Of a stretch of DNA of 64,000 nucleotides, positions 4,805 to 28,311 are shown piece by piece; within the stretch, counting starts at the first letter, position 1; each line of letters starts with the position of its first letter. The notes beneath the pieces were generated by a model. That model was given only the letters and a program-made list of their open reading frames with translations. It was not told where the DNA came from and did not search any database. Origin of the DNA: a virus. Taxonomy: Duplodnaviria; Caudoviricetes. The stretch spans positions 32,001 through 96,000 of the IMG/VR virus record IMGVR_UViG_3300028603_000002; one strand, 5' to 3'. The position numbers and the translations under genes are program-made.

Positions 4805-5839
4805 GTGAATCAACAATATTTAGATTTATTTAATAGTCTTGATAATGGACAACGCAATAGAAATGATTGTGTAGTTATTGTAGATGGTCTTAATACCTTT
4901 ATACGAGTATTTTCAGTAGTCCCAAGTCTAAATGATGATGGAGAACATATTGGAGGAATAACTGGTTTCTTAAAATCAATAGGTTATTTAATACGTCAAT
5001 TTAATGCTACAAGATGTATTATTGTATTTGATGGAGAAGGTGGCTCTTTAAGAAGAAGGAGGATTTATTCTGAATACAAAAATAACAGAAAACCATCGAA
5101 TTATAATAGGTTGGATGATTTTGGTTCTGATGAAGATCTTGAACAATCTATGAGGAGACAGATTAGAAGAATAGGTGATTATTTATCTATAATGCCAGTA
5201 GATGTAATTCAGATTGATAAGGTAGAAGCGGATGATGTAATAGCAACTTTAGCAGTAGATTATTTCCAAAATAAAAGCAATGAAATAATAATTAATTCTA
5301 CCGATAAAGATTTCATACAATTAATTAATTCTAAGATTAAAGTATGGAGTCCTACAAAGAAGCTATTATACGATGAAGATAACCTGAAAAAGGTTTTTAA
5401 AGTTAGCAAGGGAAATTATTTATTGTATAGAGTATTAACTGGTGATAAATCAGATAATATTGATGGGGTAAAAGGATTGGGTTTAAAAACTCTAATCAAA
5501 AGATTTCCAGGAATTGTTACCGAACCATATACAATAGACAGACTATTAAATGAATGTAAACAATATATAGATAATGGTGAAAAATATAAAATTTATACAC
5601 AAATTTTAGAAGCAGAAAAGATAATTCGAAGGAATTATGAATTAATGCAGTTAAATACTAGCATTATTAATGGGAGTATTCTTTTAAAGATTTATGAAAA
5701 GTTAGATAATTCAACACCAGAATTAGATACAGTTCAATTTAAAAGAATGTTTTTACAGGATAAATTATATAGTGATATTAGAGATATTGATACTTGGTTG
5801 AGAAATAGTTTGAATAGATTACTTATTTATGGAAAATGA
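4805..5839 (+). CDS. 5'-3' exonuclease / T4 RNase H-like flap nuclease
   Basis: IVDGLNTF, VFDG, YKNNR, EADDVIA, STDKDFIQL, GDKSDNIDGVKGLG. Confidence 0.92.
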   Translation: MNQQYLDLFNSLDNGQRNRNDCVVIVDGLNTFIRVFSVVPSLNDDGEHIGGITGFLKSIGYLIRQFNATRCIIVFDGEGGSLRRRRIYSEYKNNRKPSNYNRLDDFGSDEDLEQSMRRQIRRIGDYLSIMPVDVIQIDKVEADDVIATLAVDYFQNKSNEIIINSTDKDFIQLINSKIKVWSPTKKLLYDEDNLKKVFKVSKGNYLLYRVLTGDKSDNIDGVKGLGLKTLIKRFPGIVTEPYTIDRLLNECKQYIDNGEKYKIYTQILEAEKIIRRNYELMQLNTSIINGSILLKIYEKLDNSTPELDTVQFKRMFLQDKLYSDIRDIDTWLRNSLNRLLIYGK

Positions 5840-10313: not shown

Positions 10314-10468
10314 CTGAATTTTTGAGACATTTCTTTGGATTGTGTGGTGAAGCACATCCAAATATATTAAATATATTCCTGTATTCAACACCAATTGTAT
10401 ATATAGGGATTAAAATAAAATCATACCTAACAAGTTTTAAACATCAAAATCATGATGAAGTTTCATAA
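10310..10468 (+). CDS. Small hypothetical protein (52 aa, MTEFLRHFFGLCGEAHP...), not in the ORF track
   Basis: ATGA overlap with the thioredoxin stop; fills the gap to queE. Confidence 0.55.
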   Translation: MTEFLRHFFGLCGEAHPNILNIFLYSTPIVYIGIKIKSYLTSFKHQNHDEVS

Positions 10469-11279
10469 GGATAAATTATTAATATCCGAAGATTTTTACA
10501 GCATCCAGGGCGAAGGGATAACAAGTGGCTATCCGTCTTATTTTATCCGTGTTGCAAATTGTAATTTGAATTGTGGCGCGACTCCATCCTTAGTAAATAA
10601 GTTTAAGAAGGGAGAAGAAACTGCTACACCTGGAAATTTTATTGGGGATCTACATAGCCAAGGAAAGGCCTCATGGACATGCGACACGATCCCTGTTTGG
10701 GCACGAGGAGAAAATCATGATTTTGATTATCTAATTAATAGGTGGAAAGAACAAGGAATATATGATGATATAGCAAGTGGTCTAATACACCTTATATGGA
10801 CTGGTGGAGAACCAACACTACCACCACACCAAACAAGCATATTTAATTTTTATAAACATTGGATTAAATTGGATCCTTCTATAAAACCATTTATTGAAAT
10901 TGAAACAAATGGTACATTAGAAATTGATAATTCATTATTTAGTTTATTGGATCAAATTAATTGCAGTCCTAAATTAGGTAATAGTGGAATGAGTCCATCA
11001 CAACGCATAGTTCCAAAAGCTATTGAATGTATAAAGGAACATTACAATTATCAATTTAAGTTTGTAATTAGTACTGAGGATGATATTTTTGAAATGTTTA
11101 ATACATTTATTGAACCATTTAGCATACCTTTAAAGAAAGTAGTTTGCATGCCTGGATTAGATGACCAAAATAATTTCCATGAACGAACTAGATTTGTTAT
11201 GGAAATGGCAAAAAAGTATAAGTTTATTGGATTAACTAGACTCCATGTTTCGGCATGGGATCGTACAACTGGCGTTTAA
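10452..11279 (+). CDS. queE: 7-carboxy-7-deazaguanine synthase (radical SAM)
   Basis: SEDFYSIQGEG, FIRVANCNLNC...WTCDT, TGGEP, IETNGT, CSPKL, RLHV. Confidence 0.9.
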   Translation: MMKFHKDKLLISEDFYSIQGEGITSGYPSYFIRVANCNLNCGATPSLVNKFKKGEETATPGNFIGDLHSQGKASWTCDTIPVWARGENHDFDYLINRWKEQGIYDDIASGLIHLIWTGGEPTLPPHQTSIFNFYKHWIKLDPSIKPFIEIETNGTLEIDNSLFSLLDQINCSPKLGNSGMSPSQRIVPKAIECIKEHYNYQFKFVISTEDDIFEMFNTFIEPFSIPLKKVVCMPGLDDQNNFHERTRFVMEMAKKYKFIGLTRLHVSAWDRTTGV

Positions 11280-11500
11280 TGGTTATCTTATCATGGATTG
11301 CCACTATACTAATCCTCGCAGGTTGTATTGCAAATGCTAGAAAACATCATGTTTTGGCGGTAGTATTATGGACACTTGGTGATATATCATGGATAATTTT
11401 TGATATTTACATTGCTAATTATAGTCACATTGTATTAAGTTCAGCAATAATATTCATAAATTTATATGCTATAAAGAATTTGAAGAACGATACAAACTAG
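11279..11500 (+). CDS. Small 3-TM membrane protein (PnuC/SemiSWEET-like half transporter), paralog 1
   Basis: Three hydrophobic segments; likely start at ATG 11279 overlapping the queE stop; near-identical to the next ORF. Confidence 0.6.
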   Translation: MVILSWIATILILAGCIANARKHHVLAVVLWTLGDISWIIFDIYIANYSHIVLSSAIIFINLYAIKNLKNDTN

Positions 11501-11506
11501 TATTTT

Positions 11507-11749
11507 ATGACTTTATCTACTTTAATGATAATATTTTCTTGGGCTGCAACTGCTCTTGTTTTAATTGCTTTTATAGTTAATGCCCGCAAATATCATAGAC
11601 TTGCAGTGTGGTTGTGGATAATTGGAGATATATTATGGATAATTTTTGATATTTACATTGCTAATTTTAGCCATTTGGTATTAAGTTCTGTAATAATTTT
11701 TATAAATTTATATGCAATATACAACTTAAAAAAAAATGGCCCGAGTTAA
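11507..11749 (+). CDS. Small 3-TM membrane protein, paralog 2
   Basis: Shares SW.AT...NARK.H.LAV.LW..GDI.WIIFDIYIAN.SH.VLSS.IIFINLYAI with the previous ORF. Confidence 0.6.
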   Translation: MTLSTLMIIFSWAATALVLIAFIVNARKYHRLAVWLWIIGDILWIIFDIYIANFSHLVLSSVIIFINLYAIYNLKKNGPS

Positions 11750-12206
11750 TGTCGGTATTGATCCCAAATATTTAGCAGACCAACACTTGATTGCAGAATC
11801 AGTGGAAATAATAATGATTACAGGTGGATTGAAGAAAAATAATTTTAAAATTAAAAGTGCGATACCTCCCTTCTTTAAAATGGGGAAAGGACATATAAAC
11901 TTTTTTAAAAATAAAATTGTTTATTTGAAGAGAAGGTTAGATGAAGTAAATAAAGAAATGGATAATAGAGGGTTTAAAAATAGTACTAATATTGATTTGG
12001 ATGAATATCCTGAAGATTTATTAAATGATTGGGAACCTTCTAAAATTGATTCAGAAATTATTAGAAGGCGAGTTGTTGAAAGATTAATTACTAGAATAAA
12101 GGGTAAACCTGGTTCTAAATTTTATAGATATAATCGAGTATTAATAGGAGATAAAATAGATATCTTCGCAAATGAATTAAATAATTCTAAGTTGTATTTC
12201 GTATGA
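11736..12206 (+). CDS. denV: Pyrimidine-dimer DNA glycosylase (T4 endonuclease V family)
   Basis: MARVN...LADQHLIAE..E, MGKGHINFF.NK..YL..R, EM..RGF. Confidence 0.85.
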   Translation: MARVNVGIDPKYLADQHLIAESVEIIMITGGLKKNNFKIKSAIPPFFKMGKGHINFFKNKIVYLKRRLDEVNKEMDNRGFKNSTNIDLDEYPEDLLNDWEPSKIDSEIIRRRVVERLITRIKGKPGSKFYRYNRVLIGDKIDIFANELNNSKLYFV

Positions 12207-12823
12207 TGTTAAAAACAGCAAATTCAAATATAATTCTTGATGATCAAGAACGCAATAAAATGATATTAGATGCGGCAGAAGCATATGGTAATTTTTTAGA
12301 TGCCTTAAAAATAGATTGGAGAAACGACCCTAATTCAGCAGACACTCCATTAAGAGTAGCTAAATCATATGTTAATGATTTAATTGCGGGTTGTTATACA
12401 AACCCACCAAAAATTACAAGATTTCCAAATGATCAACATTATAATGGTATAGTATTTTGCGGTGATATAGATGTAAAATCTTTGTGCAGTCATCATAACC
12501 TCCCATTTTTTGGTAAGGCTTATGTTGCATACATCCCAGATGAAAATGGAACAGTAATTGGTTTAAGTAAATTGAACCGAGTAGTAGAATGGTATGCAAG
12601 AAGACCACAAATACAAGAACAATTAACAACTCAAATACATGATCAATTGAATGATGTCATTTCGGATAATGCAGGTATTGCAGTCATGATTAAAGCAAAG
12701 CATATGTGTTCATGTTTACGGGGGGTGAAACATGACAGTTATATGGTTACTAGTAAATTGAGCGGGGCATTTTATAATGATGCATCTGCCAAAGGTGAAT
12801 TTTTTGAATTTATTAAATCTTAA
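12203..12823 (+). CDS. folE: GTP cyclohydrolase I
   Basis: DTPLRVAK, SLCSHH..PF.G, GLSKLNR, RRPQIQEQLT, HMCSCLRGV. Confidence 0.95.
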   Translation: MMLKTANSNIILDDQERNKMILDAAEAYGNFLDALKIDWRNDPNSADTPLRVAKSYVNDLIAGCYTNPPKITRFPNDQHYNGIVFCGDIDVKSLCSHHNLPFFGKAYVAYIPDENGTVIGLSKLNRVVEWYARRPQIQEQLTTQIHDQLNDVISDNAGIAVMIKAKHMCSCLRGVKHDSYMVTSKLSGAFYNDASAKGEFFEFIKS

Positions 12824-12826
12824 ACA

Positions 12827-13489
12827 ATGAATAATAAATCAAATAAAATTTCTGTGATATTGTTTACAGGTGGGATGGATTCAACAGTTGTTGCACACCA
12901 ATCTAAAGAAAAGGGTAATGATGTTTATTGTTTAACATTGTCGCAGGGTGGTTTAAATTCAATTGAAGTTGAGAAATCAAAACAACTATGTAGCCATCTG
13001 GGGGTAAAAAGTATAATATATGATATGTCTTCATATTCAGACTTAGTTGATAAACAAGTCACTAATTCATGTGGGTATAGTGAGGGAAATGAAGATGATA
13101 TTGTTAATAATTTTATTCCTAATCGCAATGCAATATTTATACTTTTAGGACATTCTCTATGCCAGAATATAATGAGAAGGAAGTCTGTAGATAAGGGTGA
13201 GGTATTGTTAGGTATGTTAAGCAGCGACCCGGATTATCCTGATTCAAGGCTAGAATTTTTTCAGGGAATGACACGTGTATTAAATATGGGGTCTTTAGAA
13301 GGCACTATTGAAGTAGGTGTTCCTTTATGGGATTACTCAAAATATGAAGTCTATAAGTATTTAAAAGAAAATAAAATACCAATTGAAATGACGTGGAGTT
13401 GTAATGAAAATGAACCTATTCCATGTGGTAAATGTTATGGGTGTACACAAAGAAAAAGACTTAATAAACAATATAATATTCAAATATGA
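12827..13489 (+). CDS. queC: QueC-family ATP pyrophosphatase, paralog 1
   Basis: LFTGGMDS PP-loop, IPNRNAIF, YPDSRLEF, TWSC..PCGKCYGC zinc site. Confidence 0.85.
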   Translation: MNNKSNKISVILFTGGMDSTVVAHQSKEKGNDVYCLTLSQGGLNSIEVEKSKQLCSHLGVKSIIYDMSSYSDLVDKQVTNSCGYSEGNEDDIVNNFIPNRNAIFILLGHSLCQNIMRRKSVDKGEVLLGMLSSDPDYPDSRLEFFQGMTRVLNMGSLEGTIEVGVPLWDYSKYEVYKYLKENKIPIEMTWSCNENEPIPCGKCYGCTQRKRLNKQYNIQI

Positions 13490-14148
13490 AAAAGTGCATT
13501 TTATTAGCTTCAGGTGGTTTAGATACTCAAATATCTATGGCAATGTTAAATGAAGATGGATATGACATACTACCTATCTATTTTGATTATGGGCAACAAA
13601 CATCAAAAAAAGAAATTCCTGCATTAAAAAAATATTCCAACAGCATATTAGGTAAAGACCCAGAAATAAGGAAATTGGATAATTATACGAGTGTATTGGA
13701 GAATATGTGGGCATTGTCTGGTGATGTTTCAGAGACATATAATGATAAAGAAAAAATATTCATCCCAGGTAGAAATATCATGTTTTTGTTATTTTCAGCT
13801 GTGATTGGATATTATGATAATCGTTATGAATTAGTATTATCATTGCATAAATCAGATACAATTTCTGGAGATTGTAAAATTGATTTTACAGAAGCATTTC
13901 AACATGCTTTAACATTAGGTATGAGCACACCCAAATATCCAGTAGAATATAAAATCATCGCCCCTTTAAAAGATATGGAGAAATGGGAGGCAATACAGGT
14001 TGGTGCTTCATTAGGTATTGATTTTTCTGAGTCGTGGAGTTGTGATGATAGCAAAGAAGAACATTGCGGAGTATGTCAACAATGTACTGAACGCAAAAAA
14101 ATGTTTAATAAAGCGAATATTACAGATCCTACAATTTATTTACAATGA
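13486..14148 (+). CDS. queC: QueC-family ATP pyrophosphatase, paralog 2
   Basis: ASGGLDT, FDYGQ, IPGRNIMF, DC..DF, SWSC..HCGVCQQCTERK. Confidence 0.85.
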   Translation: MKKCILLASGGLDTQISMAMLNEDGYDILPIYFDYGQQTSKKEIPALKKYSNSILGKDPEIRKLDNYTSVLENMWALSGDVSETYNDKEKIFIPGRNIMFLLFSAVIGYYDNRYELVLSLHKSDTISGDCKIDFTEAFQHALTLGMSTPKYPVEYKIIAPLKDMEKWEAIQVGASLGIDFSESWSCDDSKEEHCGVCQQCTERKKMFNKANITDPTIYLQ

Positions 14149-15113
14149 ATTTAAAGGATAAGTTAGATGAATTTACTTATTTAAATAAGACCGTTAAAAA
14201 TTCTGAAGTTTTTAAGTTGGGTGTTACTGAGTATAATTTATACGCAAAATTTGAATTTCAATTATTTGGTGGTAGTATTAAGGCCCGAGCTGCATATGAA
14301 ATATTGGAAGATGGTATTAATAGGGGTGTAATAAATGAAAATACAACTATAATAGAATCATCTTCTGGTAATTTTGCAATTGCAATGTCGATGTTTTGTA
14401 AAAAATTAGGTTTGAAATTTATTGCGGTTGTTGATATATTAACTAATCCTAATGCTATTAAATTTTTGAAGTTTTTTGCTCATGAGGTTGTTGTTATTAA
14501 CGAAAGAGATGATAGGGGAGGTTTTTTATTAAATCGACTTAAATATATCAAAGAGTATACATCAAACAATAAAAATATATATTGGACAAATCAATATGAA
14601 AATGAATGCAATTATCTTGCACATTACAAATATACCGCGGAAGAAATAATAGAACAAGTACCTAATTTAGATATCATATTCATTGGGGCAGGAACTTGCG
14701 GGACGTTATCAGGGGTATCAAGAAAATTAAAAGAATACAATCCTAAAATCAAGGTTGTTGCAGTTGATGTTGAGGGTTCTTCAATATTTGGGTTGATACC
14801 TAAAACTCGTTTTATCCCAGGTATGGCTTCAAGTATAAAACCACCTTTATTGAATAGAGCTTTGTATGATGAGATAATGATTATAAGCGAGGAAGAAATA
14901 ATTTATTCTTGTTATAGCTTACTTGAAAAACATATGATATTTGGTGGTGGGTCTTGTGGTGCAGTTTTTGCTGCAATTGAAAGATCATTTATATCATCGC
15001 GAATCCCATTAAATTCAAATGTATTATTTTTATGTCCTGACGGTGGTCGGTTTTATATTGATACTATTTATAACAAAGAGTGGGTAAAAGAAACATATAA
15101 TATAGAAATATGA
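14145..15113 (+). CDS. sbnA: SbnA-like PLP enzyme (ACEGA synthase, cysteine synthase fold)
   Basis: GGSIKARAA PLP lysine, ESSSGNFAIA, SbnA-type D.RGGFLLNRL loop, YWTNQYEN..N..AH, GAGTCGT; paired with sbnB. Confidence 0.85.
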   Translation: MNLKDKLDEFTYLNKTVKNSEVFKLGVTEYNLYAKFEFQLFGGSIKARAAYEILEDGINRGVINENTTIIESSSGNFAIAMSMFCKKLGLKFIAVVDILTNPNAIKFLKFFAHEVVVINERDDRGGFLLNRLKYIKEYTSNNKNIYWTNQYENECNYLAHYKYTAEEIIEQVPNLDIIFIGAGTCGTLSGVSRKLKEYNPKIKVVAVDVEGSSIFGLIPKTRFIPGMASSIKPPLLNRALYDEIMIISEEEIIYSCYSLLEKHMIFGGGSCGAVFAAIERSFISSRIPLNSNVLFLCPDGGRFYIDTIYNKEWVKETYNIEI

Positions 15114-15985
15114 AAGTTATTACAGAATTACCAGAATATAGTTGGAGTGAATTGATAGATATAATTGGAATGGTAGTTGCAGAAAATGATTTCTGTCAAC
15201 CGATTAAACCATATTTATCATTTCCAGATCCAAGCGCAAGAATTATTGCAATGCCTGCCGCAGTTGGTGGTTCGATAAGAAAAGCAGGTATAAAGTGGAT
15301 ATCTAGTTTCCCAGAAAATCATAATAAGGGATTACCACGAGCTCATTCCGTTTTAATTTTAAATGATTATGACACTGGTGTTCCATTGATTACATTTAAT
15401 ACAGCGGAATTAAGTGCTTTGCGTACCGCCGCTGTAACGGGTTATTTTTTACACCAGTATATGATGTTTAATGAAGATTTAAACTCCCTGGGTATTATTG
15501 GTTATGGTCCTATTGGGCAATGTCATGAAAGTATGATACAGACTATTTTTCCATTTGTGAAAATAATGATTTGTGATCAAAAACATATTACAAATTCAAA
15601 ATGGGAAACATATACAAACTATAAAAATATGATTGGGAATGTTGATGGTATTATTACATGTACTGCAGGATCTGATTCTAATCATTATATTGAAGAAATA
15701 ACTGATAATATAAAAGTATTTTTAAATATATCATTGAGAGATATGAAAATATCAAAATCAAATTTTGAGTATTTTGATAGGTGGGTAGTTGATTCGTGGG
15801 ATGAAGTTAATCGACATGGTACTGATTTTTCTTTATTTGAAAAGAATTACAAATTTAACAATGAACAATGGTCTACACTCTTTGACATGGATGAAACATT
15901 TTTGAAAGGTAAAATATGTTTTAATCCAATGGGTATGGCATGTTTTGACATTGCAATTGCATCATATTTTTTAAATAAATTATAG
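15110..15985 (+). CDS. sbnB: SbnB-like NAD-dependent 2,3-diaminopropionate-forming dehydrogenase (ornithine cyclodeaminase fold)
   Basis: QPIKPYL.FPD..ARIIAMPA.VGG...AGIKWISSFPEN...GLPRAHSVLILND, SALRTAA, GYGPIG, NPMGMACFDIA. Confidence 0.87.
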   Translation: MKVITELPEYSWSELIDIIGMVVAENDFCQPIKPYLSFPDPSARIIAMPAAVGGSIRKAGIKWISSFPENHNKGLPRAHSVLILNDYDTGVPLITFNTAELSALRTAAVTGYFLHQYMMFNEDLNSLGIIGYGPIGQCHESMIQTIFPFVKIMICDQKHITNSKWETYTNYKNMIGNVDGIITCTAGSDSNHYIEEITDNIKVFLNISLRDMKISKSNFEYFDRWVVDSWDEVNRHGTDFSLFEKNYKFNNEQWSTLFDMDETFLKGKICFNPMGMACFDIAIASYFLNKL

Positions 15986-15990
15986 CAATA

Positions 15991-17166
15991 ATGGATAAAA
16001 AATTTATATATATACCATCTTTAAGTGCAGGTGGATATAAACAATATTTAATAGAAGATAAAATATTAGTGCACTCGGGAATCAACTCAAGATTTTATTC
16101 AGATGATTTTCCTGAAAATTTTAGATACAAAAATTTTCTATTAACTGCCGGACACTTGTATAAAAAGAAAAATATACGAGAAGAAATGGGTTTAGAAGAT
16201 TCATTTGTATTTGGTGATTCAGGTGGTTTCCAGTTTGCCTCTGGTGCAAAGGTCTTTGATAAAACTATAAGGCATGAATTATTTACTTTTTTGGAAGGAA
16301 ATTGTGATATTGCAGCAAATTTAGATATTCCGCCTAAAATGACTTTAGCTTCAAAATTTGATGAATGTCTAGAATTATCAATTGATAATTTTAAATATTT
16401 CTATGATAATCAAAGTGGCAAAGTTAAATACTTAAATATCTTGCATGGAACAACACCGGAACAATTTATCCATTGGTATGATGGTATAAAGGATTTTGAA
16501 TTTTCTGGATGGGCAACTGGTACTGCATTTAAACTTGTTAATTGGATGTATACATTACATACATTGATATCTAACAGAGAATTTGAAAAAATAAGCTGTG
16601 AATATTTTCATATTTTTGGTGTTTCATCACCCTTTGATTTTTTAATAGCAGCAAAGATTCAGGAATGTATTAACAAGTATCATGATGGTAGAGTAACAAT
16701 TACAGTAGATTCAAGTTCACCTGGGTTAGGTGCTGTGTATGGATACTATTATCATCATGTTGATTATAATAAACAATCATTTAAGAAAATGAGGTTTTTT
16801 AAAGGGAACGATATTGTGTACCCAGATGCACCATTACCATGTACAATTGGTTGTCCTGCATGCAAGAATTCCAGCATTAAACATTTTAATACATATGATA
16901 CAATGATGACAAATCATGTTGTATTACACAATACACTTATTTTTGCCAAAGCCGCCGCAGATGCAAATGATTTAATAAAAGTACCAAGTGAGGTATTAGA
17001 AGTGTTAGTTGGTAGAAACATAATAAAAATATTGAAAAGTATTGAATTAATGTTTGTAGAAAATAGTTTGCATGTATATAATAAGTTTAAACAATTATAT
17101 TTGAAGTATGGTGGTGACCATGAAAGTGAGCAAGAAGTAAAACATAATTTTTTTAATTTTAATTGA
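15991..17166 (+). CDS. dpdA: TGT/DpdA-family guanine transglycosylase (probably inserts 7-deazaguanine into DNA)
   Basis: FGDSGGFQ, NLDIPP, HIFGVS, VDSSS, C..GCPAC...HN zinc site; lies between the que genes and PolB. Confidence 0.8.
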   Translation: MDKKFIYIPSLSAGGYKQYLIEDKILVHSGINSRFYSDDFPENFRYKNFLLTAGHLYKKKNIREEMGLEDSFVFGDSGGFQFASGAKVFDKTIRHELFTFLEGNCDIAANLDIPPKMTLASKFDECLELSIDNFKYFYDNQSGKVKYLNILHGTTPEQFIHWYDGIKDFEFSGWATGTAFKLVNWMYTLHTLISNREFEKISCEYFHIFGVSSPFDFLIAAKIQECINKYHDGRVTITVDSSSPGLGAVYGYYYHHVDYNKQSFKKMRFFKGNDIVYPDAPLPCTIGCPACKNSSIKHFNTYDTMMTNHVVLHNTLIFAKAAADANDLIKVPSEVLEVLVGRNIIKILKSIELMFVENSLHVYNKFKQLYLKYGGDHESEQEVKHNFFNFN

Positions 17167-19640
17167 TGTACCAGAATATATACTACGATAAAGACGAAAA
17201 GATAATGCATCTGTGGGATGATGAGTTGGGGTATAAGAAATTCCCATGGAAGAATTATGCGTTTAAATTAAATCATAATGGTGAATATAAAACATTATTT
17301 GGAGACAAAGTTACCAAAGTTAGAAAATATCATTATAATGATAGTAATATATTTCAATCTGATGTAGATCCTGAGACGGCATATATAGTCGAAAATTATT
17401 TAGACTCTGATGAAATTTCAATAAATCATAGAATATTATGGTATGATATTGAAGTAGAAAAAACAGATTCCTTTAGTACAGCACAAGAAGCAAGAAATAA
17501 AATAATATCAGTTACGCTATGGTGTAATACAGATTCGAAGTTTATAACATTAATTCTTGGAAATAAATTTGATGTTAAATCAGCCAGAGAAAATTTTGAA
17601 TTACATTTCTTTGACAATGAAGAAGATTTATTAGAAGCATTTGTTGATTTGTGGGTATCATATAACCCAACTATCATAAGTGGATGGAACATTGATTATT
17701 TTGATACACCATATACAATTAATAGAATCAAAAAAATACTAGGTGATTATGATGCTAATAGATTATCTCCTATTAAACAGATAAAAATGGAATCCGATGG
17801 TCGGTATAGTATAAAAGGAATTACTAATTTAGATTATTTGTTTCTTTATAAAAGATTCACTCAGAATGAATTACCTAAATATTCACTCGATTATGTAGCA
17901 AAAGAAGAATTGGGAAGAGGCAAGATTGAATATGAAGGATCATTACAGCAATTATATGAAAATAATCCTGAATTATTTATAGAATACAATATTATTGATG
18001 TCGATCTACCAATTGCATTAGATAATAAATTACAATTAATTGAATTAGTTTTAACTATATGCCACGAGTGTCATGTCCCATACAACGCAATATGGCATAC
18101 AAGTCACTATTTAGATGGTGCTGCTATAACATTCTTAAATAGAAAAAATATAGTAGTACCAAATAAGAAATATAATACAGGTGATGGTACCCAAGCTCAA
18201 GGTGCATATGTAAAAGATCCACAGGTTGGTTATTATAAATGGGTATATGATTTAGATTTAAAAGCACTATATCCATCCACAATGCGTTCATTGAATATCT
18301 CCCCAGAGACTAAAGTGGGAAAAATATATAATTGGGACGAGGCGACATTTTTAAAGGATGTCGATATAACATATGATGTAGAGATACAAAATAACAGAGG
18401 AAATATTGATAAAGAAAATCTAAAAACTTTCTTTGAAGAAAATCAAATTTCAATTGCTAGCAATGGTGTATTATATAGTACTAAAAATGTTGGTTTTGTT
18501 CCTGAGATACTTGAATACTGGGATAATGAACGTACTGTATTCAAGGATAAGATGAAAGAGTATAAAAGGAAAGGCGATGACGAAAAAGGAAAATATTATT
18601 ATCTTCGTCAATGGTCAAAAAAGATTATCAGCAATTCATTTTACGGTGTATTGTTGTTAGAAACTTTCAGATTTTATGATAAAGATAATGGCGAAGCAAT
18701 AACATTGACTGGGCAATCGGTTATTAAATTTACAACTAAAGTAGCAAATAGTGTTTATAATAAAGAACTTGGAACTGTAGGGAAAGATTATTGTATTTAT
18801 ACTGACACAGATAGTGTATTTTACACTTCATTGCCGTTTATTGAGAGAGACGGTATTGACCCAGATAATGATGATGAATCAATAAAGAAAACATTAGAAG
18901 TAGCTGATTTGGCACAATCTACAATAAATGCAGCATATGATGAATATGCAAGAAGATTACATAATATTGATAAACATTGTTTTATTATTAAACAAGAAGT
19001 TGTTGCAAGAAGAGCATTATTTGTAGCTAAGAAAAGATACACTCAATGGATGGTATATGAAGAAGGTGTGTCTGTTAATAAAATGGATGTTAAAGGATTA
19101 GATACTGTAAGATCAGATTTCCCGCAATCTTTTAGGACTATTGTAGAGAAGTTATTTGAAATGGTTTTACATGATAAAGAACAAGATGAAGTAGAAAAAT
19201 TAATAGTTGATTTTAAAAAGAAGAATGTAGAGAATGAGTTATATTCACGCATGCGCCCAACTGGTGTAAAAAATATAACTAAATACAAATTTGATAATAG
19301 AGACATATTCCATTTTATGAAAGGAACACCGGTTCATGTAAAAGCAGCATTATCATATAATGATTTCTTAGAATATAAGAATGTAAGGGGATATAAGTCA
19401 ATAACAGATGGTGATAAGATAGTATATGCTTATTTAAGAGATAACCCGTTAAAACTATCCGCAATAGCATTACCAGTGGATGATGTGCCGAAAGAAGTAG
19501 AAGATTTTGTGTATAATTATATTGATGATGCACAAATTTTTGACAGTTTATTAAAAGATAAAATACAAAAAATATTTACTGCCCGCGGATGGGGGCAAAT
19601 AATTTTAAACAATACAATAAAACAATTCTTTGAATTATGA
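17163..19640 (+). CDS. Family B DNA polymerase (T4 gp43-like)
   Basis: YDIEV and GWNIDYFD exonuclease motifs; DLKALYPS, KIISNSFYG, YTDTDS, KKRY. Confidence 0.96.
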   Translation: MMYQNIYYDKDEKIMHLWDDELGYKKFPWKNYAFKLNHNGEYKTLFGDKVTKVRKYHYNDSNIFQSDVDPETAYIVENYLDSDEISINHRILWYDIEVEKTDSFSTAQEARNKIISVTLWCNTDSKFITLILGNKFDVKSARENFELHFFDNEEDLLEAFVDLWVSYNPTIISGWNIDYFDTPYTINRIKKILGDYDANRLSPIKQIKMESDGRYSIKGITNLDYLFLYKRFTQNELPKYSLDYVAKEELGRGKIEYEGSLQQLYENNPELFIEYNIIDVDLPIALDNKLQLIELVLTICHECHVPYNAIWHTSHYLDGAAITFLNRKNIVVPNKKYNTGDGTQAQGAYVKDPQVGYYKWVYDLDLKALYPSTMRSLNISPETKVGKIYNWDEATFLKDVDITYDVEIQNNRGNIDKENLKTFFEENQISIASNGVLYSTKNVGFVPEILEYWDNERTVFKDKMKEYKRKGDDEKGKYYYLRQWSKKIISNSFYGVLLLETFRFYDKDNGEAITLTGQSVIKFTTKVANSVYNKELGTVGKDYCIYTDTDSVFYTSLPFIERDGIDPDNDDESIKKTLEVADLAQSTINAAYDEYARRLHNIDKHCFIIKQEVVARRALFVAKKRYTQWMVYEEGVSVNKMDVKGLDTVRSDFPQSFRTIVEKLFEMVLHDKEQDEVEKLIVDFKKKNVENELYSRMRPTGVKNITKYKFDNRDIFHFMKGTPVHVKAALSYNDFLEYKNVRGYKSITDGDKIVYAYLRDNPLKLSAIALPVDDVPKEVEDFVYNYIDDAQIFDSLLKDKIQKIFTARGWGQIILNNTIKQFFEL

Positions 19641-26232: not shown

Positions 26233-26457
26233 ATGGACATGAAGAAGGGAAGATTATACAAAAAGAAAAAAGAGCTGAATGATGCTTATTATATTTTCCT
26301 TGGAGATAGCGGTTTACCTGAGTTAGGGACGTTTTTATGTGTTGTCCCTATTAATGATACCCGATTAAGAATAGTCTCGGTAGAACTAAGGAAAGCAAGT
26401 GAAATGAAGATTGTATCAGAAGAAGAATTTCGTAACTATATAGATGTATCTTGGTAA
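26233..26457 (+). CDS. Hypothetical protein
   Basis: ORF track; overlaps queD start. Confidence 0.5.
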   Translation: MDMKKGRLYKKKKELNDAYYIFLGDSGLPELGTFLCVVPINDTRLRIVSVELRKASEMKIVSEEEFRNYIDVSW

Positions 26458-27011
26458 TGTGGTTAATTGATAAAACATTTGAATTTGATTATGGTCATAG
26501 AGTTTGGACTCAAAAACTAAATTCTGACTTTAGTATTGATAATAGATGTGTATGTAGACATTTACACGGTCACCGAGGAAAAGTACATGTTTATTTAAAA
26601 TCAGATACTTTAGATGAAACTGGGATGGTTACTGATTTTAAACATTTGAATTGGTTTAAGAAATTCTTAGATGATGTGTTGGATCATAAAATGATTCTTG
26701 ATATGGATGATCCAACATTATTTTTATTGTATTCATTAGCTACTGAACATTATTTAATAGAAAATAAAGAATTTAATTATTATACAGTAGATATAGCAAA
26801 ATTAGAAACTGATTTAGGTGATACTTTTACTGATGCTGAAATGGAATTATATGAGGGATTAGTAATAGTTAACTTTGTACCGACATCAGAAAACTTAGCA
26901 AAGTGGTTAGCAGAAATAACGTCTAAGAAAATGAAAGAAATGGGGGTGAATGTAAGTCATATTGAATTCTTTGAAACTCCAAAAAGTAGAAGTACATATT
27001 ATATTGATTAA
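26451..27011 (+). CDS. queD: 6-carboxy-5,6,7,8-tetrahydropterin synthase
   Basis: FDYGHRV, CRHLHGH, DFK, LDHK, PTSENLA, ETP. Confidence 0.92.
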   Translation: MVMWLIDKTFEFDYGHRVWTQKLNSDFSIDNRCVCRHLHGHRGKVHVYLKSDTLDETGMVTDFKHLNWFKKFLDDVLDHKMILDMDDPTLFLLYSLATEHYLIENKEFNYYTVDIAKLETDLGDTFTDAEMELYEGLVIVNFVPTSENLAKWLAEITSKKMKEMGVNVSHIEFFETPKSRSTYYID

Positions 27012-27028: not shown

Positions 27029-27235
27029 ATGACAGAATCATGTTATTATTTAGTAAAGGTAAAAATTCATATTATAGATGATGGTAAAGCAAAAGACGCT
27101 ACTGAACAACATCTTGTTAAAGCTGTATCAGTAGTTGATTGTGATGTAAAGATTAATGAACATTATGAAAATATGATGCATGATTGGCAGATAGTATCTG
27201 TCGCTGAAACTAAAATAATGGATGTTATTGAATGA
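27029..27235 (+). CDS. DUF4494-like protein
   Basis: Y.VKVK....DGK.K..TEQ.LV.AVS pattern of this Bacteroidota family. Confidence 0.65.
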   Translation: MTESCYYLVKVKIHIIDDGKAKDATEQHLVKAVSVVDCDVKINEHYENMMHDWQIVSVAETKIMDVIE

Positions 27236-28311
27236 AAATAATTCTAATAGAGTCTGCTGACAAACAACATAGGTATAGGAAGAGGTGGGATATGATAGTA
27301 ATGTCAGCACTGAAAAGTTTGGGGTATGATGTATTCCAAACTGGGGTGTTAGATAGCATTGGATTTGAGCATTTTGAAATGGCGGAAGCTGAACATAGTA
27401 GCAGACAATTACAAAGAATACTTTCATATTTAAATTTTGAATTTAGTTTAGATGATAAAAATGTAGATGAATTAGTAATTTTTATTAATGAATATGCCTA
27501 TAATGCAGCAATATTAGAATTGAAAAGATATGCTGATTTAAATAGGAGGAATTGGAAATTTATTGGTCTATGGCCTACAAAATTAATTTTTAATAAAAAG
27601 CACCCATATTCTAGAAGTAGAAGATTGGATGCGTGGTCGATGAAATTTGAACATTTATTATTTCAGACATATGATGCTAATATTTTCAATCATGAATTTG
27701 CAAAGACGCTTTTCTTAAAGAAGAGAAAAATAAGAAAAGAGGAATTAGTTAAAAAAGCACATTATATTGGGGAGCCGTTTGAATATCTAACAGAAATTGC
27801 GAAGGAATACAATCTGGAAAATAAGGAGGATATAATTCTAATTCCAGCAGGTATAGATGCAGACCATCAAATTAGAATTATTGAAATATTCAAAAGAGAA
27901 TTGCCAAAATATGAATTTATTTATTTAAATGATAATAAATTAGATAGGAAACAGTATTATCAAATGCTTGCTAAAGCTAAAATGATGTTATCAATTAATA
28001 CATATGATTATTATGATGATACTTTTTTAAGTTTCGAAGCATTGGCATTCAAAGTAATACCATTAGCACCAGAGTTCACACGCTTGGGAAGAACACTTCC
28101 CAGAATGTTATATACATTTGATTACTGGATTGTAATGCCACCCATGATCAATTTTGTTCGACAGAGAGGAGATATACAGAAAAAGATATCAAATTTAATG
28201 GATAATTATGAGAGTCTTACACATTATTTAGTAGAGGATACTGAAAAAATGAAACAGAGATATAGTATAGATAAATTAATTGATGTTATAGAAAAATTAA
28301 AAGAAGAGTAA
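27232..28311 (+). CDS. Divergent GT-B glycosyltransferase-like protein
   Basis: C-terminal YYQMLAKAKMMLS...FEALAFKVIPLAP; near queD. Confidence 0.55.
   Translation: MKIILIESADKQHRYRKRWDMIVMSALKSLGYDVFQTGVLDSIGFEHFEMAEAEHSSRQLQRILSYLNFEFSLDDKNVDELVIFINEYAYNAAILELKRYADLNRRNWKFIGLWPTKLIFNKKHPYSRSRRLDAWSMKFEHLLFQTYDANIFNHEFAKTLFLKKRKIRKEELVKKAHYIGEPFEYLTEIAKEYNLENKEDIILIPAGIDADHQIRIIEIFKRELPKYEFIYLNDNKLDRKQYYQMLAKAKMMLSINTYDYYDDTFLSFEALAFKVIPLAPEFTRLGRTLPRMLYTFDYWIVMPPMINFVRQRGDIQKKISNLMDNYESLTHYLVEDTEKMKQRYSIDKLIDVIEKLKEE

Follow-up and report, generated by a model that had tools for sequence, protein, structure and literature searches.

A phage 7-deazaguanine cluster with two non-canonical QueC proteins and a diaminopropionate gene pair: a known kind of DNA modification with a predicted new base

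Why would a phage keep, in the midst of its genes for 7-deazaguanine DNA modification, a pair of enzymes of the kind that makes L-2,3-diaminopropionate (L-Dap)? The question is raised by a gene cluster in a 64,000-nucleotide stretch of viral DNA (Duplodnaviria; Caudoviricetes; henceforth the window), which comprises bases 32001–96000 of IMG/VR record IMGVR_UViG_3300028603_000002, a 171,908-bp virus genome that has direct terminal repeats and is rated complete. Genes for the synthesis of 7-carboxy-7-deazaguanine (CDG) and for a DpdA-like transglycosylase here flank four further genes, which encode two QueC-family proteins (QueC1 and QueC2) and an SbnA/SbnB pair. A first-pass annotation, made from the letters of the window, had suggested that L-Dap is joined to the deazaguanine to give an amino-acid-bearing DNA base. 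On the evidence below the locus represents phage 7-deazaguanine DNA modification, which is a known kind of system, and has an accessory module that is new and is predicted to make a new base. The reading we favor, at a probability of about 0.45, is that the DNA carries a deazaguanine conjugated to Dap.

The window has a G+C content of about 30% and carries almost all of its genes on the + strand, including those of the cluster, queD and the GT4-like gene at 27232–28311. The nearest relative of its DNA polymerase among GenBank phages is that of Microcystis phage Mel-JY01 (40% identity), followed by those of cyanomyophages and pelagimyophages (about 31%), and the source of the cluster is an uncultured T4-like phage. 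The cluster forms part of the replication module. This begins with a DnaB-like helicase, a class II ribonucleotide reductase and thioredoxin, and continues, in order, with QueE, two small open reading frames (ORFs), DenV, FolE, QueC1, QueC2, SbnA, SbnB, the 391-aa DpdA-like protein, the polymerase PolB, the sliding clamp and the clamp loader. From the DenV/FolE junction through to that of DpdA and PolB the intergenic distances are −4, +3, −4, −4, −4, +5 and −4 bases, all on one strand: the seven genes are translationally coupled as far as PolB. The sbnA and sbnB genes are thus placed between queC2 and dpdA with 4-base overlaps.

The CDG genes are recognized with confidence. FolE (GTP cyclohydrolase I, the first step to CDG; 12203–12823) matches PF01227 at 6.7e-49 and is 53–63% identical to FolE of related phages; QueD (6-carboxytetrahydropterin synthase; 26451–27011), which lies 9 kb beyond the replication-module cluster, matches PF01242 at 4.7e-29 as well as phrog_2389 and has the motif CxxxHGH. 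The QueE-like radical S-adenosylmethionine (SAM) enzyme, which would convert 6-carboxytetrahydropterin (CPH4) to CDG (10452–11279), matches phrog_2076 at E 5.7e-42, has weak matches to QueE TIGRFAMs and carries SIQGEG at its N-terminus. Its CxxxC lies at residues 36–40 and the following Cys only at 77, so that the radical-SAM cluster motif would hold a long insertion. Between QueE and FolE is a DenV-type pyrimidine-dimer DNA glycosylase (11736–12206; PF03013, E 9.5e-13), the end of which overlaps the start of folE by 4 bases; at the other end of the cluster the start of polB (17163–19640; T4-type family B DNA polymerase; phrog_262, 2.5e-180) overlaps the dpdA stop. In its coordinates and family assignments the first-pass annotation of the run from folE to polB, with queE upstream and queD at 26451, proved correct gene for gene; the identities of FolE, QueD, QueE, the two QueCs, SbnA and SbnB are borne out by PF01227, PF01242, phrog_2076, PF06508, TIGR03945 and, as best family, TIGR03944.

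A scan of IMG/VR with a profile of the DpdA-like family returned 483 contigs, and neighborhoods within 10 kb were examined in the best 80. The gene order in these is FolE–PolB–x–DpdA–clamp; PolB is present in 46 and FolE in 31 of the 80 loci, and QueC1, QueC2, SbnA and SbnB in none. Five relatives were searched as whole records, of which one (181,588 bp) is 100% complete; all five have QueD, and none has a match to the QueC or SbnA families. Because the nearest DpdA relatives keep FolE, QueD and DpdA beside PolB without QueC or SbnA, the core of this lineage stops at CDG, as do the Campylobacter and phiST deazaguanine systems (PMC10516641); QueC1, QueC2, SbnA and SbnB are an accessory addition to it, placed exactly between FolE and DpdA. 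The addition is not a recent arrival, since GC and GC3 of the four genes equal those of the flanking genes; recent horizontal insertion was rejected on this ground. A megablast search of GenBank phages with the cluster gave no match.

The relatives form a large family of 483 contigs, mostly of marine T4-like phages, with FolE, QueD and the transglycosylase-fold protein beside PolB and no QueC in the loci and records examined. They have the look of a CDG-stop deazaguanine system that is widespread in such phages and whose DpdA-like protein is unmatched in Campylobacter phage CP220, the sole DpdA3 phage tested.

QueC2 has just seven close homologues (61–65% identity) in a collection of 5.8 billion clusters, and the closest homologues of SbnA number five (53–56%). 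Co-occurrence was read from identical size fingerprints (contig count and longest contig), not from sequence. By this measure three pairs of QueC2 and SbnA homologues agree in full: P0247 and P0125 (1 contig, 10,302 bp), P0250 and P0128 (4 contigs, the longest 104,989 bp) and P0249 and P0129 (12 contigs, the longest 163,672 bp). For two further pairs the match is in longest contig only (P0244 and P0255, 8,674 bp; P0245 and P0252, 2,288 bp). For QueC1, 1.84 billion representatives yielded a single relative at E≤1e-30 (P0256, 49% identity), which lies on a contig of 2,083 bp, the same size as that of the QueC2 homologue P0246. Six chance coincidences of contig size are not credible, and we take the fingerprints as indirect evidence that the module recurs elsewhere, with QueC2-type proteins in the company of SbnA-type ones. 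In IMG/VR the QueC2 profile found one match, at 25% identity. One expectation that can be drawn from the first-pass annotation, that sbnAB should accompany dpdA in related phages, has to be put differently: the nearest dpdA relatives are without sbnAB, and the co-occurrence is instead with the QueC2 subfamily.

The two QueC proteins are themselves unusual. Canonical QueC is defined by SGGxDS, YxQxHxxE, VPxRN, YPDC and a zinc motif, and the E. coli variants Y35A, R99A, Y131A and Y189A are inactive for synthesis of 7-cyano-7-deazaguanine (preQ0; PMC13329287). QueC1 (12827–13489; PF06508, 2.2e-38) and QueC2 (13486–14148; PF06508, 2.5e-33) are PP-loop ATPases of this family and both pass the PF06508 cut-off; both miss the TIGR00364 equivalog cut-off of 150.3 bits, at 122.4 and 98 bits, respectively. 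The PP-loop reads TGGMDS in QueC1 and SGGLDT in QueC2, conservative Ser/Thr swaps that are conserved in their own relatives, and the VPxRN motif is present as IPNRN and IPGRN. YxQxHxxE is lost from QueC1, which has Q, G and N at the positions of Y35, Q37 and H39, as has its only close relative; QueC2 keeps Y35 and Q37 and lacks the His (H39), giving YxQ(x)5E, which is invariant in 8 sequences. In place of YPDC, QueC2 has SGDC, with Tyr-Pro (Y131, P132) deleted throughout its family, and QueC1 has YPDS, with Ser for Cys. All four zinc-site Cys are found in both proteins; the first is followed by Asn in QueC1 and Asp in QueC2, compared to Tyr in less divergent QueCs, a residue that presumably corresponds to E. 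coli Y189. YPDS and this Asn recur in the one relative of QueC1, and the Asp in all seven of QueC2. To judge from these motifs, neither protein is a canonical QueC and each is without residues essential for preQ0 synthesis. The two are only 26% identical to one another, no QueC of a GenBank phage reaches 31% identity to either, and in a quick tree, the other rows of which were the best matches of QueC1 only, they fall on separate long stems. A recent duplication was rejected on account of this identity and these branches.

The His-less YxQ(x)5E of QueC2 is the variant reported for Cap9 (PMC13329287), and the C-terminal half of QueC1 matches a Cap9 chain at 53 bits. Cap9, of type IV CBASS (cyclic-oligonucleotide-based antiphage signaling system), and QatC, of QatABCD, are QueC-family ligases that use ATP to join the carboxyl of CDG to a primary amine as an amide. 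Because that amine is the N-terminus of a protein, formation of a CDG amide with an amine other than ammonia has precedent for the QueC fold. The CBASS enzyme moreover works alongside a protein with the tRNA-guanine transglycosylase (TGT) fold, as the phage cluster likewise has one. The differences are also clear: Cap9 and QatC serve bacterial defense and act on a partner protein, at its N-terminal glycine, whereas in the phage the presumed substrate is a free amino acid made by the products of adjacent genes, within a replication module; and QueC1 and QueC2 are full-size (220 aa), whereas Cap9 is truncated and QatC extended. A separate case is that of Vibrio phage 1.081.O._10N.286.52.C2 (MG592456.1, Schizotequatrovirus; locus L170, 7763–9576), in which a QueC-like ORF of 191 aa, about the size of Cap9, follows a 412-aa hypothetical protein. 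The two could, by analogy, be a phage-borne pair of the Cap9/Cap10 type; the record has two QueC-like places.

What would the amine be? SbnA (14145–15113), a pyridoxal 5'-phosphate (PLP) enzyme of the type that forms N-(1-amino-1-carboxy-2-ethyl)-glutamate (ACEGA) from O-phosphoserine and glutamate, passes the curated equivalog test for TIGR03945 (354.2 bits, cut-off 349.95). Among PDB chains it matches S. aureus SbnA best (215 bits) and CmnB second; a cystathionine beta-synthase, at 119 bits, is the highest-scoring chain of any other type. The SbnB-like protein (15110–15985), which has the Rossmann motif GYGPIG of a nicotinamide adenine dinucleotide (NAD)-dependent dehydrogenase and would convert ACEGA to L-Dap and 2-oxoglutarate, finds S. 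aureus SbnB (4M54) at 94.8 bits, and nothing else above 49.5. Selectivity for, or binding of, O-phosphoserine by SbnA is credited to Arg132, Tyr152 and Ser185 (PMC12414870). The phage enzyme keeps the PLP lysine (Lys46) together with Arg131 and Tyr151, the equivalents of the first two; around the third (residues 181–187) it has AGTCG where the SbnA proteins of Bacillus, Paenibacillus and Brevibacillus have VS(S/T)GG, and AGTCG is confined to the small clade of closest homologues that travels with QueC2. The pair thus resembles SbnA/SbnB of staphyloferrin B synthesis and CmnB/CmnK of capreomycin synthesis in family, in structural matches, in gene order and in the PLP lysine and the Arg and Tyr equivalents. 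It differs from them in its viral context, in the residue at position 185, in a shorter SbnB that scores below the cut-off and in that the phage genome has no siderophore synthetase or non-ribosomal peptide synthetase (NRPS). On balance SbnA and SbnB likely make L-Dap from O-phosphoserine and glutamate.

A single-protein scan of IMG/VR for SbnA gave no match, and a profile scan found four distant viral SbnA-like loci, none with deazaguanine genes. Only one IMG/VR contig (L083, 2243–3128) has an SbnA-like gene of moderate closeness, at 44% identity; no deazaguanine genes lie near it, and the match is split between two frames, which suggests a frameshift or a broken gene. Among the loci nearest to the phage SbnA, adjacency of sbnA and sbnB is kept in 64 of 80 from JGI metagenomes and 71 of 80 from bacterial genomes. 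The low-GC loci among these 160 are ordinary; one (L092), for example, has an ORF of 2178 aa upstream.

No other plausible user of Dap is present in the complete genome. Searches of all 171,908 bp for IucA/IucC (the NRPS-independent siderophore synthetases), AMP-binding, Condensation, GATase_7 (glutamine amidotransferase) and the DUF5591 domain of ArcS found none, and the only trace of QueF was a weak cross-match on FolE itself. The absence of siderophore synthetase, NRPS, QueF and ArcS, which the first-pass annotation had noted for the window, thus extends by domain searches to the genome as a whole. Routes through 7-aminomethyl-7-deazaguanine (preQ1) and through ArcS were rejected, QueF and ArcS being absent. 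The suggestion that Dap adds to preQ0 as an amidine finds no support either, because no ArcS-like enzyme is present.

The 391-aa DpdA-like protein (15991–17166) is the putative inserter of the modified base. It has no Pfam, NCBIfam or PHROG match of its own; a search with PF01702 gave no match in it or anywhere in the complete genome, and neither the protein nor its family profile found a match among PDB sequences. It carries GDSGGFQ and a Cys cluster, PCTIGCPAC, and keeps the invariant Asp residues. Among its 340 homologues many at about 40% identity carry PF01702, and this domain was matched in 8 of 20 aligned family members (best E 7.6e-07). An AlphaFold model (pLDDT 87.5, pTM 0.89) was matched by Foldseek to bacterial TGTs (Z. 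mobilis TGT: E 1.3e-09, probability 1.00, TM about 0.53). The motif, the homologues and the predicted fold together place the protein in the TGT superfamily, and the earlier dpdA/tgt assignment stands. That it would exchange guanine in DNA is suggested by context, since its gene sits beside PolB and the CDG genes.

Tblastn of the protein against GenBank phages found only PA5oct-like Pseudomonas phages and one Sinorhizobium phage (24–26% identity), and returned no Campylobacter, Cellulophaga or Flavobacterium phage. Membership of DpdA3 was rejected because the family profile has no match at E≤1 in the whole record of Campylobacter phage CP220. Compared with 18 QueC-less relatives the protein departs at 19 positions from a residue shared by 16 or more of them, for example at F82 (directly after GDSGGFQ), H152, S213 and A248; H152, F209 and L218 are common to its closest homologue (P0002). 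The 19 lineage-specific substitutions may reflect a shift in specificity.

How might these parts act together? FolE, QueD and QueE would, on strong homology, make CDG, and SbnA and SbnB would likely supply L-Dap. One non-canonical QueC would then adenylate the carboxyl of CDG and couple CDG-AMP to an amine of L-Dap instead of ammonia, the product being the N-(2-amino-2-carboxyethyl) amide of CDG. This enzyme is more likely to be QueC2, because QueC2 travels with SbnA and has the Cap9-type motif; QueC1 might, more speculatively, be its partner, or carry out further processing or a second activation of the amide. The DpdA-like transglycosylase, given its context, would swap guanine in the phage DNA for the resulting base, although in an alternative order it would insert CDG and the module would act on the DNA. 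The likely benefit would be protection from host restriction. That sbnAB belongs to the deazaguanine pathway is supported by the add-on status of the four genes, the recurrence of QueC2 with SbnA, the non-canonical QueCs and the Cap9/QatC precedent. The first-pass proposal of an amino-acid-bearing deazaguanine made by QueC therefore stands as regards gene identities, pathway membership and a precedent for the ligation; a Dap amide or amidine in DNA is an extrapolation, in which Dap as nucleophile, the role of each QueC, the order of steps and DNA as final target are all inferred.

Several points weigh against a Dap-conjugated base. The product is predicted from computation, not from chemistry. 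It would be a bulky and zwitterionic base for a TGT-fold enzyme to accept. As a heterodimer the two QueCs could still make 7-amido-7-deazaguanine (ADG) or preQ0 despite their missing canonical residues. The SbnB-like protein scores 198.8 bits against TIGR03944, for which the cut-off is 326.9 (it is nonetheless the best family by far), and at 291 aa it is some 40 residues shorter than SbnB; in the SbnA clade of the phage the equivalent of Ser185 is Gly, such that substrate or product could differ. The evidence for linkage has its own limits. In the 160 nearest cellular and metagenomic SbnA loci neither QueC, FolE, QueD, QueE nor DpdA lies within 10 kb, and the association rests on one small viral clade; within that clade co-occurrence was read from contig sizes, and these sizes do not appear among the best 120 homologues of the DpdA-like protein, so that a link between module and DpdA family is seen in this genome only.

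Of the competing explanations the one that survives best, although it is clearly less probable than the Dap-conjugated base, is that the end product is ordinary. QueC1 and QueC2, as a heterodimer or with the half-reactions split between them, would make ADG or preQ0 with ammonia, and DpdA would insert it; the SbnAB product would act as a nitrogen carrier or be used elsewhere, by the neighboring sugar and glycan genes, in a virion or host component, or in host metabolism. In its favor, the PP-loop, RN motif, overall fold family and all four zinc Cys are retained in both QueCs, dADG and dPreQ0 are common phage products (PMC10516641), and sugar-type genes with a glycosyltransferase family 4 (GT4)-like protein lie 5–11 kb downstream, around QueD. 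Yet one canonical QueC is enough for preQ0, and here each copy is without essential residues. It is also difficult on this account to see why QueC2-type and SbnA-type proteins should recur together on independent contigs, why sbnAB should be overlapped into place between queC2 and dpdA, and why no other Dap-using enzyme is found in the complete genome.

An unlikely alternative is that the target is not DNA. CDG would be attached to a protein amine, as with Cap9/Cap10 or QatC, or a soluble CDG–Dap metabolite would serve as an antimetabolite or in counter-defense. Proteins are indeed deazaguanylated in type IV CBASS by a QueC-like ligase that is paired with a TGT-fold protein, and the resemblances of QueC1 (53 bits) and QueC2 (YxQ(x)5E) to Cap9 are in keeping with this. 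However, the TGT-fold gene is conserved beside PolB and the clamp loader in QueC-less relatives (a family of 483 viral contigs), the retention of GDSGGFQ and the invariant Asp fits a catalytic transglycosylase of the replication module, and no CD-NTase or QatB-like partner is seen near the cluster. Least probable is a SbnA/SbnB-like pair of changed specificity, yielding a different amino compound or a direct alanyl alkylation of a deazaguanine intermediate in place of free L-Dap: AGTCG in only the clade that travels with QueC2, the loss of one of the three O-phosphoserine-selectivity residues (PMC12414870) and the short, sub-threshold SbnB speak for it, but SbnA passes its equivalog cut-off with PLP Lys, Arg131 and Tyr151 intact, Gly is found at the same position in some annotated cellular SbnA proteins (P0214, P0230), and retention of SbnB makes sense only with glutamate as nitrogen carrier, as in L-Dap synthesis.

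The Dap-conjugated base also admits a bolder form, which we consider improbable. L-Dap might replace ammonia in both classical half-reactions, run by the two QueCs: one would form the CDG–Dap amide, the other would adenylate the amide oxygen, and the free amine of Dap would attack. Because a secondary amide cannot yield a nitrile, the ring would close to a 2-imidazoline-4-carboxylate on C7, and the DNA would hold a cyclic amidine base resembling archaeosine. Further decoration of such a base might come from the GT4-like enzyme found with DpdA in related phages.

Described phage 7-deazaguanine systems (FolE/QueD/QueE with or without QueC, Gat-QueC, QueF, ArcS or DpdL/M/N, with DpdA1–4; Hutinet 2019, Cui 2023, PMC10516641) share with this phage the CDG core and a TGT-superfamily protein presumed to swap guanine. 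Unlike this phage, none has SbnA/SbnB or two QueC paralogues, and none of the eight described deazaguanine DNA bases bears an amino acid (PMC10516641). No paper that connects deazaguanine or DpdA with SbnA, diaminopropionate, ornithine cyclodeaminase or cysteine synthase came up in a literature search. An amino acid on the side chain of a 7-deazaguanine is known from the ArcS lysine adduct en route to archaeosine and from glutamyl-queuosine. Those routes operate on tRNA, use ArcS/RaSEA or a paralogue of glutamyl-tRNA synthetase (GluRS) and start from preQ0 or queuosine, whereas the phage genome has no ArcS domain.

The surroundings of QueD deserve a brief description. Between 22396 and 28311 the window encodes a cupin/mannose-6-phosphate isomerase C-terminal domain, a 534-aa protein with a weak APH-kinase match, a TylF-like methyltransferase, a phosphoheptose-isomerase-like ORF and a 359-aa candidate GT-B/GT4-like glycosyltransferase (27232–28311; ESM Atlas structure matches to GT4 clusters, TM 0.71–0.75). 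These sugar-type genes may decorate DNA or the modified base. The GT4-like protein is 29% identical to one that sits between PolB and DpdA in related phages (L010, 8842–9972), and in another relative (L046) a Glycos_transf_1 protein adjoins FolE; because of these two placements the glycosyltransferase may belong to the ancestral CDG/DpdA system. In L010 a phosphoribosyltransferase (5253–5759; PF00156, E 3.5e-24) directly follows FolE, which hints at use of the deazaguanine base at the nucleotide level; the genome of the window has no homologue.

All known 7-deazaguanines of DNA carry small groups at C7 (H, carboxyl, amide, nitrile, amidine, or aminomethyl with its methyl or formyl forms). If the Dap-conjugated base is real, it would represent a new class of natural DNA bases: a deazaguanine that bears an amino acid would be zwitterionic, and its free amine could be decorated further. 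QueC-type ligases would then be known to act on free amino acids as well as on ammonia and protein N-termini, and the L-Dap pathway would have a role other than in siderophores and peptide antibiotics. The base would also matter for the resistance of phages to restriction enzymes, CRISPR nucleases and modified-base glycosylases, and the enzymes would be possible tools for the site-specific functionalization of DNA. The sister phages, which share the CDG core and DpdA and are without the module, offer the natural comparison.

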